A stretch of 64,000 nucleotides of DNA from Candidatus Poriferihabitaceae bacterium (GCA_965214625.1 OZ243962.1:578739-642738), one strand, 5' to 3'; positions 47,655-54,043 are shown, counted from the stretch's first letter. The notes: generated from the sequence alone by a model not told the origin. Numbers and translations are program-made.

Positions 47655-48755
47655 ATGTATAAACCCTTAAAACTGATTTCTGGTGGACTGGTCGGGCTAG
47701 CGATGCTAGGCAGCGGTCTGGTCAACGCAGAAACAATCAAGATTCGAGTCCAATCTGTGCTGCCGACCAAGGCAGATGAAATTGTCATGGTGAAGGATTT
47801 TGCCAACAATGTGGCAACATTGACCAATGGAGAGGTCCAGATAGAGGTTCTGCCTGATGGTGCCATCGTCAGCGGTCGGGATATTCTCAATGCAGTGGAC
47901 AAGGGACTGGTCGAAGCCGGCTTTGCCTGGACACATTACTGGTCGGGTCAACACCCGGCGGCCATGCTGTTCGGATCTCCGGTTGCCGGTGCCGGTGTGG
48001 GGATCGACAATATCGCTTTTATCTCATGGTTCATGAATGGCGGTGGTCGCGAACTGTATAACCAGTTATGGGATGAGATGGGGCTGAATATTCATGGGTT
48101 GATGCTGCAACCGGTCGGCCCGGAGGCATTGGGATGGTTCAAGGAACCGATCAACAGCATGGACGACTTCAGAAAATACCGTTTCAGAACCCCGCCTGGG
48201 ATTCCCGGCCAAACGTACAAGGATATTGGGGTCGCCTCGGTCGCCATGGGCGGGGGTGATATCCTGCCCGCGCTGGAAAAGGGAACGATTGATGCCGCTG
48301 AGTGGTGCTGCCCGAAGCCTGACAGTGTATTCGGTTTCCAGAAAGTGCTGAAACACTACTATCTGCAGGGCTTGCATCAGGTCGTGGTCAACGCCGACAT
48401 GTACATCAACGGCGATGTCTGGGACAGTCTGACACCGGCACAGCAAAATGCGATGAACATTGCGGCGGATGCATCACTGATCCGTTCGCTCAGCTATCGA
48501 ATTTACGAAAATGGTAAAGCGCTCAAAGATCTGACCGAAAATCATGGCGTGATCCTGCACGATACACCAGCCGATTATTTCCCGGCCTACATGAATGCAG
48601 CCAAGGCCAGTCTTGAGAAAAATGCCGCTGAGAACGCTTTTTTCAAAACCGTCTGGGATTCCCAGAAAGCGTTTGCGGAAATCGCTGTACCGTTCTGGGC
48701 AGGTGCCCAAACGTCCAATGCGGCGCTGGGTCAGGCGTTCGCCAAAGGCCAATAA
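47655..48755 (+). CDS. hpsK: TRAP transporter substrate-binding protein (DctP family), probable DHPS-binding HpsK
   Basis: Signal peptide; FRTPPG, LEKGTIDAAEW and YYLQGLHQ motifs. The hpsK name rests on synteny with hpsNOP. Confidence 0.75.
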   Translation: MYKPLKLISGGLVGLAMLGSGLVNAETIKIRVQSVLPTKADEIVMVKDFANNVATLTNGEVQIEVLPDGAIVSGRDILNAVDKGLVEAGFAWTHYWSGQHPAAMLFGSPVAGAGVGIDNIAFISWFMNGGGRELYNQLWDEMGLNIHGLMLQPVGPEALGWFKEPINSMDDFRKYRFRTPPGIPGQTYKDIGVASVAMGGGDILPALEKGTIDAAEWCCPKPDSVFGFQKVLKHYYLQGLHQVVVNADMYINGDVWDSLTPAQQNAMNIAADASLIRSLSYRIYENGKALKDLTENHGVILHDTPADYFPAYMNAAKASLEKNAAENAFFKTVWDSQKAFAEIAVPFWAGAQTSNAALGQAFAKGQ

Positions 48756-48790
48756 CGGCAGTCTATCGTAATTCTTCATTAATTTGATGT

Positions 48791-48816
48791 TCTGGCGGAC
48801 TCTCGGGTCCGCCAGA
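48791..48816. repeat. 10-bp stem-loop after the TRAP SBP gene
   Basis: tctggcggac-tctcgg-gtccgccaga. Confidence 0.7.
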
Positions 48817-48940
48817 TGACTGCATGATATCTCTATCGAACCGGGACGGTTCGTTTTTCCCCTGTCATTTTGAAAACCCATCCTGTTAAATGGTTCCCCT
48901 TCTGTTAAGATAGCCGGATTGTTCCCTTCAGACTACTTTC

Positions 48941-49555
48941 ATGGCTGACGACATCGATCCCAATGAATTGGAAATCACGGATGAACTGATTGCCGAGCGC
49001 CGTTCTGCGGACCCGGATAAATTGCCCGAGGACATGCCGCCTTGGATGGCGAATCCAATTCGCTGGATTGACACCATGAGCCTGTGGATCGGCAAGATTG
49101 TCTGCTGGCTGTTGCTGCCGATGTGTCTTGCCATGGTCTATGAAGTGATCGCCCGGAAATTTTTTGTCGCCCCGACCATGTGGGCCTATGACATCAGTCG
49201 TATGTTCTATGGTGCGCTGTTCATGCTGGGTGCAGGCTATGCCCTGTCCAAGGGCGTGCATATCCGCGCTGATTTCATTTACCGAAACTGGTCACCCCGC
49301 ACACAAGGAATAGTCGATGCCACCTTGTATCTGCTGTTTTATTTCCCGGGACTGATCGTGTTCATGTGGATGTCGATTGATTACGCCGCCACCTCAATCG
49401 TGCGCGGTGAAAGAGGTATGGACACCGCCTGGATGCCTTATATGGGACCGATCAAAAGTGCGCTGCCCATCGGTATCCTGTTCCTGTTGATCCAGGGCGT
49501 TTCTGAATTCCTGAAAAGTCTCTATGCAGCAACCCGTGGGAGGTGGCCAGTCTGA
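48941..49555 (+). CDS. hpsL: TRAP small permease (DctQ), probable HpsL
   Basis: 4 TM helices; YEVIAR.FF.APT.WAYD and GVHIRAD motifs. Confidence 0.75.
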   Translation: MADDIDPNELEITDELIAERRSADPDKLPEDMPPWMANPIRWIDTMSLWIGKIVCWLLLPMCLAMVYEVIARKFFVAPTMWAYDISRMFYGALFMLGAGYALSKGVHIRADFIYRNWSPRTQGIVDATLYLLFYFPGLIVFMWMSIDYAATSIVRGERGMDTAWMPYMGPIKSALPIGILFLLIQGVSEFLKSLYAATRGRWPV

Positions 49556-52228: not shown

Positions 52229-52252
52229 TCCATCCCGTCATACCGTATCAGT

Positions 52253-53029
52253 GTGAAACCGGCCTCTCTGATTACCGAATTCAGCCTTGAGGGACATGCC
52301 TTTGTGGTCACGGGCGCCAGTTCCGGTATCGGTCGCGCCATGTCCGGGTTTCTGTGTGAAGCGGGGGCTTCGGTGATCCTGATCGCAAGGAGAGAAACCG
52401 CCCTGATCCAGGTTACCGATCAATTGACCGAGGCCGGTTACCAGGCTGCTTTTGTGACCGGTGATCTGACCTATCGGGAAAGCCTGGGCGATCTTGCAGC
52501 CCGGTGCAGACAGCCATTCGGGCCGATCAGCGGGATCATCAATGCAGCCGGTATCAATCCGAGACAGCCTGTAGAAAAAGTCACCCTTGAGACTTGGGAC
52601 CAAACCCTGAATCTGAACCTGTCTGTCCCGTTCTTCTTTACCCGGGAATTCATACAAGACATGAAAAATCAGCGGTATGGCCGAATCCTCAACATTGCCT
52701 CCCTACAGTCATCCAGAGCCTTTGCCAACGGTCTACCCTATGGCGCCTCCAAGGGAGGCATCTGCCAACTCACTCGAGCCATGGCCGAAGCCTGGTCTCG
52801 ATATGGTATTATGAGCAATGCCATTGCACCGGGATTTTTTCCAACCGAACTCACGGCCCCCGTCTTCGCCGACGCCGAAACGGCAGGACACTTCGCCGCG
52901 CAGACCACGGTGGGCAGAAATGGGCAACTGGATGATCTCAAAGGGGCGACCATCTTCTTTGCGTCCAATGCCTGCCGTTATATCACCGGGCAAACCCTGT
53001 ATGTCGATGGCGGTTTTACCGCCAGATAA
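52253..53029 (+). CDS. hpsO: SDR family oxidoreductase, probable HpsO (DHPS 2-dehydrogenase)
   Basis: VTGASSGIG, NAAGIN and YGASKGG catalytic motif; located between hpsN and the Zn-dependent dehydrogenase. Confidence 0.75.
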   Translation: MKPASLITEFSLEGHAFVVTGASSGIGRAMSGFLCEAGASVILIARRETALIQVTDQLTEAGYQAAFVTGDLTYRESLGDLAARCRQPFGPISGIINAAGINPRQPVEKVTLETWDQTLNLNLSVPFFFTREFIQDMKNQRYGRILNIASLQSSRAFANGLPYGASKGGICQLTRAMAEAWSRYGIMSNAIAPGFFPTELTAPVFADAETAGHFAAQTTVGRNGQLDDLKGATIFFASNACRYITGQTLYVDGGFTAR

Positions 53030-53053
53030 ACCTGTTTTTACCGGACTGGAATC

Positions 53054-54043
53054 ATGAAAGCCCTGGTCTATACTGCCAATCAAGAGATGACCTTTCGCGA
53101 TGAACCCGAGCCTCGGTCGCTCGACGGGGATGCACTCGTTTCCATTGAATCGGTTGGTATCTGCGGCTCGGATATGCACGCTTATCTTGGTCATGACCCA
53201 AGACGGGTCCCGCCGCTTATTCTTGGTCACGAAGCCGTCGGCACCGTCCTTGAGGGAGCCCAACCCGGTCAGAAAGTCGTGTTGAATCCCCTGATCACGT
53301 GCGGAAGCTGCAGAGAATGCCTGGCGGGACAGCAAAATCTGTGCACCAAAAGAGATTTGATCGGCATGTATCGGGCGGGTGCCTTTGCCGAGAAAATCGC
53401 GATCCCCGAACGTAATCTGATTGAGGTGGACCCCGCTTTCCCGCCTTCCAAGGCTGCCCTGACCGAACCGGGTGCCACAGCGTTACATGCGGTTTCACTC
53501 GCTGAAAAAGCACTGACACGCCCGATCAGTGAGTCCCGCGCCCTGGTCATCGGAGCCGGGTCTGTCGGTCTGCTCACCGCCCTGATACTGAAGGACAAGG
53601 GTGTTGGAGACATTCATCTGGCCGAAACCAATGCCCTGCGCCGAACCACCGTCCAGACCTGTAGCGACTGCACTGTTTTTGATCCCACCCGTCAGACGCC
53701 CTCCTCCGACTACTATCAACTGGTATTTGATGCCGTGGGCAGTCAACAAACACGCAAGATGGCCATTACCGCCGCCAGGCCCGGCGCTACCGTGGTGCAT
53801 ATTGGTCTCGCAGACAATATCGGGGAAATGGATGTGCGTCGTATGACGTTGCAGGAAATCACTTTCATCGGTTGCTATACCTATACGCCGGTTGACCTCA
53901 AGGTGACCCTGGACAAGATTCAAAGCGGTGCCCTGGGCAGTCTGGAGTGGATAGAGGAACGCCCTCTGTCATCGGGAGCAACCGCTTTTCGTGAACTGCT
54001 TCAAGGAAAATGCGCTGCACCGAAAGTCGTTCTGAATCTATAA
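53054..54043 (+). CDS. hpsP: Zn-dependent alcohol dehydrogenase, probable HpsP
   Basis: GICGSD, ILGHEAVG, CGSCRECLAGQQNLC and GAGSVG motifs; synteny. Confidence 0.75.
   Translation: MKALVYTANQEMTFRDEPEPRSLDGDALVSIESVGICGSDMHAYLGHDPRRVPPLILGHEAVGTVLEGAQPGQKVVLNPLITCGSCRECLAGQQNLCTKRDLIGMYRAGAFAEKIAIPERNLIEVDPAFPPSKAALTEPGATALHAVSLAEKALTRPISESRALVIGAGSVGLLTALILKDKGVGDIHLAETNALRRTTVQTCSDCTVFDPTRQTPSSDYYQLVFDAVGSQQTRKMAITAARPGATVVHIGLADNIGEMDVRRMTLQEITFIGCYTYTPVDLKVTLDKIQSGALGSLEWIEERPLSSGATAFRELLQGKCAAPKVVLNL

Follow-up and report, generated by a model that had tools for sequence, protein, structure and literature searches.

A putative DHPS uptake and oxidation cluster with a TRAP transporter distinct from HpsKLM in a Candidatus Poriferihabitaceae bacterium

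The compounds 2,3-dihydroxypropane-1-sulfonate (DHPS) and isethionate are major currencies in which carbon and sulfur pass from algae to marine bacteria. The DNA analysed here, a stretch of 64,000 nucleotides referred to as the window, represents positions 578739-642738 of the single-contig genome of a Candidatus Poriferihabitaceae bacterium (GCA_965214625.1, OZ243962.1; 3.05 Mb, 52.8% GC, estimated to be 97% complete). Going by its nearest named relatives, the organism appears to be a sponge-associated gammaproteobacterium of the Arenicellales type. In an initial annotation of the window, a complete cluster for DHPS catabolism had been described, in which genes for a transporter of the tripartite ATP-independent periplasmic (TRAP) type are followed by three dehydrogenase genes, and which had been equated with hpsKLM-hpsNOP of Ruegeria pomeroyi. 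This cluster, the relatives of its transporter and the sulfonate genes in the remainder of the genome are the subject of this report.

Genes of the cluster

Six co-directional, closely packed open reading frames (ORFs) span positions 47655-54043 of the plus strand. They specify DctP, DctQ and DctM proteins, a HisD paralog, a short-chain dehydrogenase/reductase (SDR) and a Zn-dependent dehydrogenase, and the ORFs and family matches confirmed the six genes of the initial annotation with their order, direction and coordinates. The features of the region are the following.

47655-48755, plus strand: DctP-type TRAP binding protein (PF03480)
48837-48853, plus strand: hairpin with a T-run after it, located between the genes for binding protein and permease
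48941-49555, plus strand: TRAP small membrane subunit DctQ (PF04290)
49543-50898, plus strand: TRAP large membrane subunit DctM (PF06808; TIGR00786, 288 bits, cut-off 268)
50921-52228, plus strand: HpsN, HisD family (PF00815, 446 bits)
52253-53029, plus strand: HpsO, SDR (SDR families; TGASSGIG and YGASK motifs)
53054-54043, plus strand: HpsP, Zn-dependent medium-chain dehydrogenase (ADH_N, ADH_zinc_N; motifs for catalytic and structural Zn ligands)

The reading frames of dctQ and dctM share 13 nt, and dctM, hpsN, hpsO and hpsP are separated from each other by 22, 24 and 24 nt, respectively. The binding-protein gene starts with ATG, 7 nt downstream of AGGAG, and its product carries a Sec signal peptide ending in VNA, with E as the following residue. 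The gap between this gene and dctQ measures 185 nt and contains the hairpin with its T-run, a predicted structure that may act as a partial terminator permitting excess production of the binding protein. In a conspecific assembly (L099; ENA ERZ25084387, contig ctg33911l) the gene order is identical to that of the window. The GMC oxidoreductase (glucose-methanol-choline family) gene located upstream, hpsN, hpsO, hpsP and others are broken into fragments in that assembly; since the copies in the window are intact, long-read indel errors are the most likely cause, rather than pseudogene formation.

The protein starting at position 50921 was compared with all solved structures. It scored 592 bits with the sulfopropanediol 3-dehydrogenase of Cupriavidus pinatubonensis, CpHpsN (8v35), and 527 bits with a second enzyme designated "(R)-DHPS dehydrogenase" (8wwe), while the best histidinol dehydrogenase reached just 262 bits. 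Identity amounts to about 60% with CpHpsN, 57% with HpsN from Leisingera and 34% with HisD of the same genome. HpsN proteins are defined by the motif G-R-Y-A/S-H at the position where HisD has G-S-A-P-L; His126 and Lys353 bind the sulfonate, Gln248, His251, Asp352 and His411 are Zn ligands, and Glu318 and His319 are catalytic (PMC11382572). The window protein retains GRYAH together with Q248, H251, E318, H319, D352, K353, H359 and H411, whereas the true HisD of the genome has GKATY in the motif position and Tyr at 353. In total, three HisD-family genes are present in the genome, hisD (C1:1903393-1904616), hpsN of the window and an hpsN paralog (C1:1440709-1442004). Judged from its sequence, the 50921 protein is a genuine HpsN, that is, a predicted sulfopropanediol (R-DHPS) 3-dehydrogenase, and the separation from HisD expected in the initial annotation is seen in the scores as well as in the diagnostic residues.

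For the two remaining dehydrogenases, reference hps clusters were taken from plasmids of C. pinatubonensis (hpsR-N-O-U-P-suyAB) and Leisingera caerulea (hpsR-KLM-NOP-comDE-slcD). The SDR is 50% and 59% identical to HpsO of C. pinatubonensis and Leisingera, respectively, and the Zn-dependent dehydrogenase 48% and 50% identical to HpsP. The next-best paralogs in the genome scored clearly lower, 129 versus 232 bits for HpsO and 146 versus 294 bits for HpsP, and reciprocal best hits also back the assignment of all three genes. The 52253 and 53054 proteins therefore fit the DHPS dehydrogenases HpsO and HpsP, and the designation hpsNOP given initially is upheld by the identities to two reference clusters, the HpsN motif and the reciprocal hits. 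The function ascribed to HpsO and HpsP at that time, interconversion of (R)- and (S)-DHPS, is contested. It corresponds to a model from 2010 that is cited in PMC11382572 and PMC12814064, while a report from 2024 describes oxidation at C3 to sulfolactaldehyde by both enzymes, R-DHPS being the substrate of HpsO and S-DHPS that of HpsP (PMC11131964).

The transporter and its relatives

The likeness to hpsKLM-hpsNOP of R. pomeroyi extends to the gene order but not to the sequences of the TRAP proteins. Against 24gc, a solved TRAP protein that binds DHPS and that we take to be RpHpsK, HpsK of Leisingera scored 673 bits but the window binding protein only 28.5 bits. Tblastn searches of the whole genome with HpsK and HpsL gave no match at E <=1e-5, DctM of the window is just 28% identical to HpsM of Leisingera, and neither a HpsK-type nor a HpsU-type DHPS importer was detected in the genome by tblastn with reference proteins. 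By these comparisons, the transporter is not a HpsKLM of the R. pomeroyi type, and the initial designation has to be given up. The binding protein also lies outside cluster 2 of Barber et al. 2026, the HpsKLM class, which comprises proteins within about 40% identity of RpHpsK. Among solved structures it is closest to SmoM (2hzk, 134 bits) and to TTHA0766, which binds lactate (2zzv, 96 bits), placing it in the SmoM/TTHA0766/ketoacid-binding group of DctP proteins, of the 'mannitol/chloroaromatic' COG4663 type. Relatives are labelled accordingly by JGI as "TRAP-type mannitol/chloroaromatic compound transport system".

Several mutually distant clusters of binding proteins have been found near hpsNOP by Barber et al. 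2026, one of which includes SAR11_0864 (PMC13335735). This protein binds isethionate and both DHPS enantiomers (PMC13335735); isethionate binding was assayed with 10 mM CaCl2 (PMC11485210). Membership in the SAR11_0864-type cluster (cluster 3) is defined by about 40% or more identity to SAR11_0864 and by a neighbourhood of the hpsNOP type, and the latter is found for the window binding protein. As a proxy for the comparison with SAR11, samples of 400 Pseudomonadota and 400 Alphaproteobacteria genomes were searched. One SAR11-like genome (1.3 Mb, 31% GC; L115, G791:C2:300001-320000) contains an ortholog with 70% identity. There, a GMC gene is divergent from a TRAP of the window type (70%, 66% and 77% identity for the P, Q and M subunits), and a homolog of HpsP is encoded downstream. 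The window binding protein likely belongs to the SAR11_0864 cluster, and this class of hpsNOP-linked TRAP transporters, although not the textbook one, is already described.

In a scan of species-representative genomes, at least 595 relatives of the binding protein were confirmed, and the best 80, being 75-92% identical, were kept for locus analysis. The closest ones come from metagenome-assembled genomes that bear the label Arenicellales, Candidatus Poriferihabitaceae or Spongiihabitans. Paracoccaceae, Rhizobiaceae, Rhodospirillales, Granulosicoccaceae, Leucothrix and Entotheonella are sources of others. Homologs of DctQ with 42-79% identity are encoded in 76 of the 80 loci. Neighbourhoods were counted in the 50 loci whose sequence extends 4 kb or more upstream of the binding-protein gene and 8 kb or more downstream of it. 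Both a GMC gene and hps genes are present in 13 of them, a GMC gene only in 16, hps genes only in 12 and neither in nine. Thus, hps genes occur in 25, a GMC gene in 29 and at least one of the two in 41 of these loci. Considering all 80 loci, an IclR regulator gene is found near the window-type TRAP in 34, a LacI regulator in seven and SuyB in five. The genes comDE-slcD are part of four Paracoccaceae loci, and a fused comDE together with a SlcD-like gene is contained in a Leucothrix locus (L038).

In a tree of the binding proteins, the window copy falls into a clade of 12 with 99% support, all members of which are hps-linked. Outside this clade GMC and hps contexts are intermixed, with at least eight changes of each. 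Two further observations were made in these loci. A membrane protein of the TerC family, about 210 amino acids in length, is encoded between the GMC and binding-protein genes in 25 of the 80 loci (for example L037, L040, L044, L048 and L068). It recurs as part of the GMC-TRAP module of Alphaproteobacteria and is not present in the window; export of sulfite or of a metal would be a guess at its function. In Neptunicoccus cionae (L080, 4151-18885) both transporter types were detected, the window-type TRAP with GMC, hpsN and hpsP genes and, about 6 kb away, a LacI gene with a RpHpsK-type binding protein that is 86% identical to HpsK of Leisingera.

Upstream genes, regulators and desulfonation genes

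Directly upstream of the cluster and on the same strand, two genes are located that had been left out of the initial description.

44200-45810, plus strand: GMC oxidoreductase (Pfam GMC_oxred_N/C)
45975-47216, plus strand: class V pyridoxal phosphate (PLP) enzyme (Pfam Aminotran_5)

The GMC protein is choline-dehydrogenase-like, scoring 635 with NCBIfam NF002550 (cut-off 605) and 549 with the betA equivalog (cut-off 732). Homologs with 51-71% identity constitute the GMC genes that adjoin the same TRAP family in the 29 fully flanked loci mentioned above. In R. pomeroyi, iseJ for a flavin-dependent isethionate dehydrogenase adjoins iseKLM and iseR (PMC4334477, PMC6453916), and iseKLM mutants fail on isethionate (PMC4334477, PMC10130141). 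From gene order and this literature, the GMC protein is probably an isethionate dehydrogenase of the IseJ type.

The class V PLP protein is SufS-like and Cys-less and is closest to the VC1184 family (TIGR01976, 274, cut-off 352). Apart from matches of 23-26% in two Neptunicoccus loci, it was not found in the 80 related loci. Its gene has been inserted between those for the GMC protein and the TRAP transporter in this species only; the conspecific assembly carries it as well, and a palindrome is located 3' of it at about 47310-47330. The enzyme is probably not core to the cluster. Class V enzymes as conserved partners of the cluster were considered and rejected, because three unrelated subfamilies are encoded near the TRAP in only six of the 80 loci. 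These unrelated enzymes adjoin the window-type TRAP in Neptunicoccus, where the gene follows dctM, and in L019, L020 and L035, where it follows hpsP. In three close relatives, L023, L027 and L028, suyAB is located just upstream of the binding-protein gene, the place held by the class V gene here.

The absence of a LacI-type hpsR, already stated in the initial annotation, was corroborated and extended: no LacI gene is present near the cluster, and the LacI helix-turn-helix domain (PF00356) was not found anywhere in the genome. In the syntenic relative L030 the gene order is dnaK-grpE-erpA-IclR-GMC-TRAP-hpsNOP, and in the window dnaK-grpE-erpA-GMC-(class V PLP gene)-TRAP-hpsNOP. Therefore, an IclR gene is missing here and the class V gene has been inserted. 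Tblastn with the cluster-associated IclR revealed no homolog in the whole genome, in which the sole IclR_C match is a frame of 174 amino acids about 166 kb past the end of the window. An IclR remnant between erpA and the GMC gene was also considered, but the available 279 bp gave no tblastn signal. As no dedicated regulator is encoded, the cluster is probably expressed constitutively or subject to global control. The lack of LacI domains and the single short IclR_C frame are consistent with a reduced regulatory repertoire of a symbiont-like organism.

Tblastn of the 64-kb window with reference proteins revealed no SuyA/B, CuyA, CuyC, SlcD, ComDE or Xsc, in agreement with the initial statement that desulfonation genes are lacking there. 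The only related match is a thiamine diphosphate (TPP) enzyme encoded at 31431-33020 on the minus strand. It scored 319 bits with the Xsc model (cut-off 676), is 27% identical to the real Xsc of the genome and represents a paralog, one of about ten acetolactate-synthase- or Xsc-like TPP genes in the genome.

For the whole genome, a different result was obtained. A cuyA gene is present at C1:1438425-1439417 (NF052482, 538 bits, cut-off 450) as part of an operon hpsN2-cuyC-cuyA (C1:1438425-1442004; L006, 7404-11016, minus strand), in which cuyC specifies a PLP enzyme of the DegT family. The hpsN2 product is 62% identical to HpsN of the window and shares all binding residues examined with it, and the arrangement of the three genes is kept in a relative of the same family. 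A gene for a Na+/solute symporter of the VC_2705 type is located divergently upstream of this operon. An xsc gene was identified at C1:2057270-2059012 (TIGR03457, 1034 bits, cut-off 676), accompanied by pta, ald and a GntR regulator gene. SuyAB is absent from the genome according to tblastn and Pfam PF04295. One candidate for the cysteate racemase CuyB was rejected, since its Pfam match of 29.6 bits is below the cut-off and the protein is probably MurI.

The distance of the desulfonation genes from the window is 0.8-1.4 Mb. Of three outcomes offered in the initial annotation, C-S cleavage encoded elsewhere, cleavage by a non-canonical route, or excretion of sulfolactate, the first was the right one, with cuyA and xsc-pta at distant loci. 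Finding cuyA elsewhere had been named there as the observation that would dispose of an incomplete pathway, and the idea of an incomplete pathway with excreted sulfolactate is therefore removed, given the scores of cuyA and xsc and the presence of pta. Among the genes proposed for a search of the whole genome, cuyA, xsc, a SlcD-like gene and a separate hisD were found; suyAB and a LacI-type hpsR were not.

The SlcD-like gene codes for a flavin mononucleotide (FMN) dehydrogenase that is 50% identical to SlcD of the Leisingera hps cluster. It overlaps a gene for an acetolactate-synthase-like TPP enzyme by 4 nt, the two together spanning C1:2027360-2030199 (L007, 9360-12199). The two genes are translationally coupled, and the pair is kept in several relatives of the family. 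It could be a module converting a hydroxy acid to an aldehyde, possibly including a sulfopyruvate decarboxylase other than ComDE. The TPP enzyme was also considered as Xsc and rejected (187 bits, cut-off 676). Elsewhere in the genome, a fused ComDE-like protein is encoded that shares 65% identity with the ComDE from the hps cluster of Leucothrix, and a protein of the Ldh_2 family scored 156 bits with the sulfolactate dehydrogenase model (cut-off 500). In a relative of the same order, slcD, a LysR gene, hpsN, cuyA and cuyC are contained on one contig. Of 31 genomes compared, that of the window and 30 relatives, 25 contain an HpsN ortholog, 20 a CuyA above the cut-off and 15 a member of the SuyB family.

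Proposed pathway and alternative explanations

From the sequence data it appears quite probable that the locus is a working operon for import and oxidation of DHPS, TRAP-hpsN-hpsO-hpsP, with desulfonation encoded elsewhere in the genome. The periplasmic binding protein would capture DHPS and deliver it to the DctQM permease. HpsN would convert R-DHPS to R-sulfolactate in a four-electron oxidation dependent on NAD+ and Zn, and HpsO and HpsP would handle the two DHPS enantiomers, either by interconversion via the 2-oxo compound or by oxidation at C3 to sulfolactaldehyde. Sulfolactate would be oxidised to sulfopyruvate by the SlcD-like FMN dehydrogenase, from where two routes are conceivable: decarboxylation by the fused ComDE-like protein to sulfoacetaldehyde, the substrate for Xsc and Pta, or transamination to cysteate, which would be cleaved by CuyA. 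Isethionate taken up by the same transporter would probably be oxidised to sulfoacetaldehyde by the GMC flavoprotein, providing a second branch to Xsc.

The GMC gene also suggests another explanation, in which the TRAP transporter is the isethionate importer IseKLM belonging to the GMC/IseJ gene, hpsNOP is merely located downstream and DHPS enters the cell otherwise. The order iseJ-iseKLM published for R. pomeroyi (PMC4334477) would fit, as would the 16 of 50 fully flanked loci in which GMC and TRAP genes occur without hps genes and the IclR regulator that accompanies the GMC gene in 34 loci. In the window, however, it is hpsN that begins 22 nt past dctM, while the class V gene and a gap of 438 nt lie between the GMC gene and the TRAP genes. 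Moreover, all 12 binding proteins of the window's clade are hps-linked, nine of them without a GMC gene, and the genome contains no importer of the HpsK or HpsU type. Assignment of the transporter to isethionate in this exclusive sense is thus considered rather unlikely. The view closest to the initial annotation, oxidation of DHPS to sulfolactate only, followed by its excretion, or C-S cleavage by an unknown enzyme, draws on the absence of SuyAB from a genome whose relatives L023, L027 and L028 carry suyAB beside the same TRAP, on the Cys-less class V PLP enzyme placed where these relatives have suyAB, and on the putative nature of the SlcD-like and ComDE-like assignments. It is improbable in view of cuyA and xsc-pta, both well above curated cut-offs, of the 50% and 65% identity of the SlcD-like and ComDE-like proteins to proteins encoded inside hps clusters, and of the common occurrence of CuyA in the family. 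Still another C3 sulfonate, such as L-cysteinolate or sulfolactaldehyde, might be the main substrate instead of DHPS. A HpsN of Bilophila whose binding residues are identical favours L-cysteinolate as substrate over R-DHPS (PMC12814064), and the two HpsN paralogs of the genome do not differ in any binding residue examined. The genome contains hpsN2-cuyC-cuyA, however, as an operon of its own that corresponds to the published cysteinolate type, and HpsN of the window is linked to HpsO and HpsP, whose substrates are sulfonates with hydroxyl rather than amino groups (PMC11131964), making this possibility very remote.

A number of results weigh against a DHPS operon with complete downstream steps as outlined above. 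No CuyB cysteate racemase is recognisable in the hpsN2 operon or in the genome, nor was a specific aminotransferase for cysteate identified. The SlcD-like gene is paired with a TPP enzyme gene and adjoins dmdA rather than sulfonate genes, and the fused ComDE-like protein remains below the NCBIfam cut-offs (173 versus 221.5 and 143.5 versus 148). The IseJ assignment is drawn from gene order and family membership, and the SAR11-type assignment from the same kinds of evidence and one SAR11-like genome; two further SAR11-like genomes contain only a TRAP binding protein of 30% identity. Finally, a scan of the region for promoters and terminators gave site counts no higher than in shuffled sequence, and the operon limits are therefore based on gene spacing alone.

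A combined scheme may also be drawn, which is rather doubtful as a whole. One TRAP transporter of the SAR11_0864 kind, possibly Ca2+-dependent, would feed two flanking branches, one for isethionate with the IseJ-like GMC protein and one for DHPS with HpsNOP, both leading to sulfoacetaldehyde and Xsc; all dedicated regulators would have been lost from this symbiont-like genome. The C3 branch might proceed via the SlcD-like protein and its TPP enzyme as a non-ComDE sulfopyruvate decarboxylase, and/or the Cys-less SufS-like PLP enzyme might be an undescribed processor of sulfonates or sulfinates.

Comparison of the DHPS operon proposed here with known systems revealed a mosaic of shared and deviating features. 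With hpsRKLMNOP of R. pomeroyi DSS-3 (SPO0590-0596) and its roseobacter orthologs, such as that on the Leisingera caerulea plasmid, the window shares the order TRAP P-Q-M, HpsN, HpsO and HpsP on one strand, but it differs in the non-orthologous TRAP and in the lack of a LacI-type HpsR. The comDE-slcD genes attached to the Leisingera cluster have candidate counterparts at distant loci of the genome. In hpsRNOUP-suyAB of C. pinatubonensis (HpsN, PDB 8v35), the active-site and sulfonate-binding residues of HpsN as well as HpsO and HpsP are like those of the window, whereas the major facilitator superfamily transporter HpsU and the adjacent SuyAB are both missing from the genome. A gene for a GMC-type flavoprotein beside a TRAP transporter, here on the same strand, is common to the window and to iseJ-iseKLM-iseR of R. 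pomeroyi (SPO2355-2359); IclR-type iseR has no counterpart in the window, although an IclR gene is contained in the syntenic relative L030. Like the HpsNOP-associated cluster of binding proteins with SAR11_0864 (PMC13335735), the TRAP family of the window occurs repeatedly beside hpsNOP, in Alphaproteobacteria as well as Gammaproteobacteria. The hpsN2 operon is similar to the D-cysteinolate cluster hpsN-cuyC-cuyA-cuyB (Liu et al. 2025, PMC12814064), except for CuyB.

The locus brings no new biochemistry, but it shows that the transporter is misnamed when only gene order is considered. The TRAP found here beside hpsNOP belongs to a different and very widespread family, whose 80 closest members together with the SAR11-like ortholog come from symbionts of sponges, from roseobacters and Rhizobiaceae and from a SAR11-like genome. 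Surveys in which RpHpsK is the only marker for DHPS uptake will miss transporters of the window type. Likewise, calling a pathway incomplete from a single window is unsafe when desulfonation genes are located as far away as in this genome. Within one family, the desulfonation module beside the TRAP genes is suyAB in some cases, a class V PLP gene in others, or is missing altogether, a variability which shows that sulfonate pathways turn over in modules.

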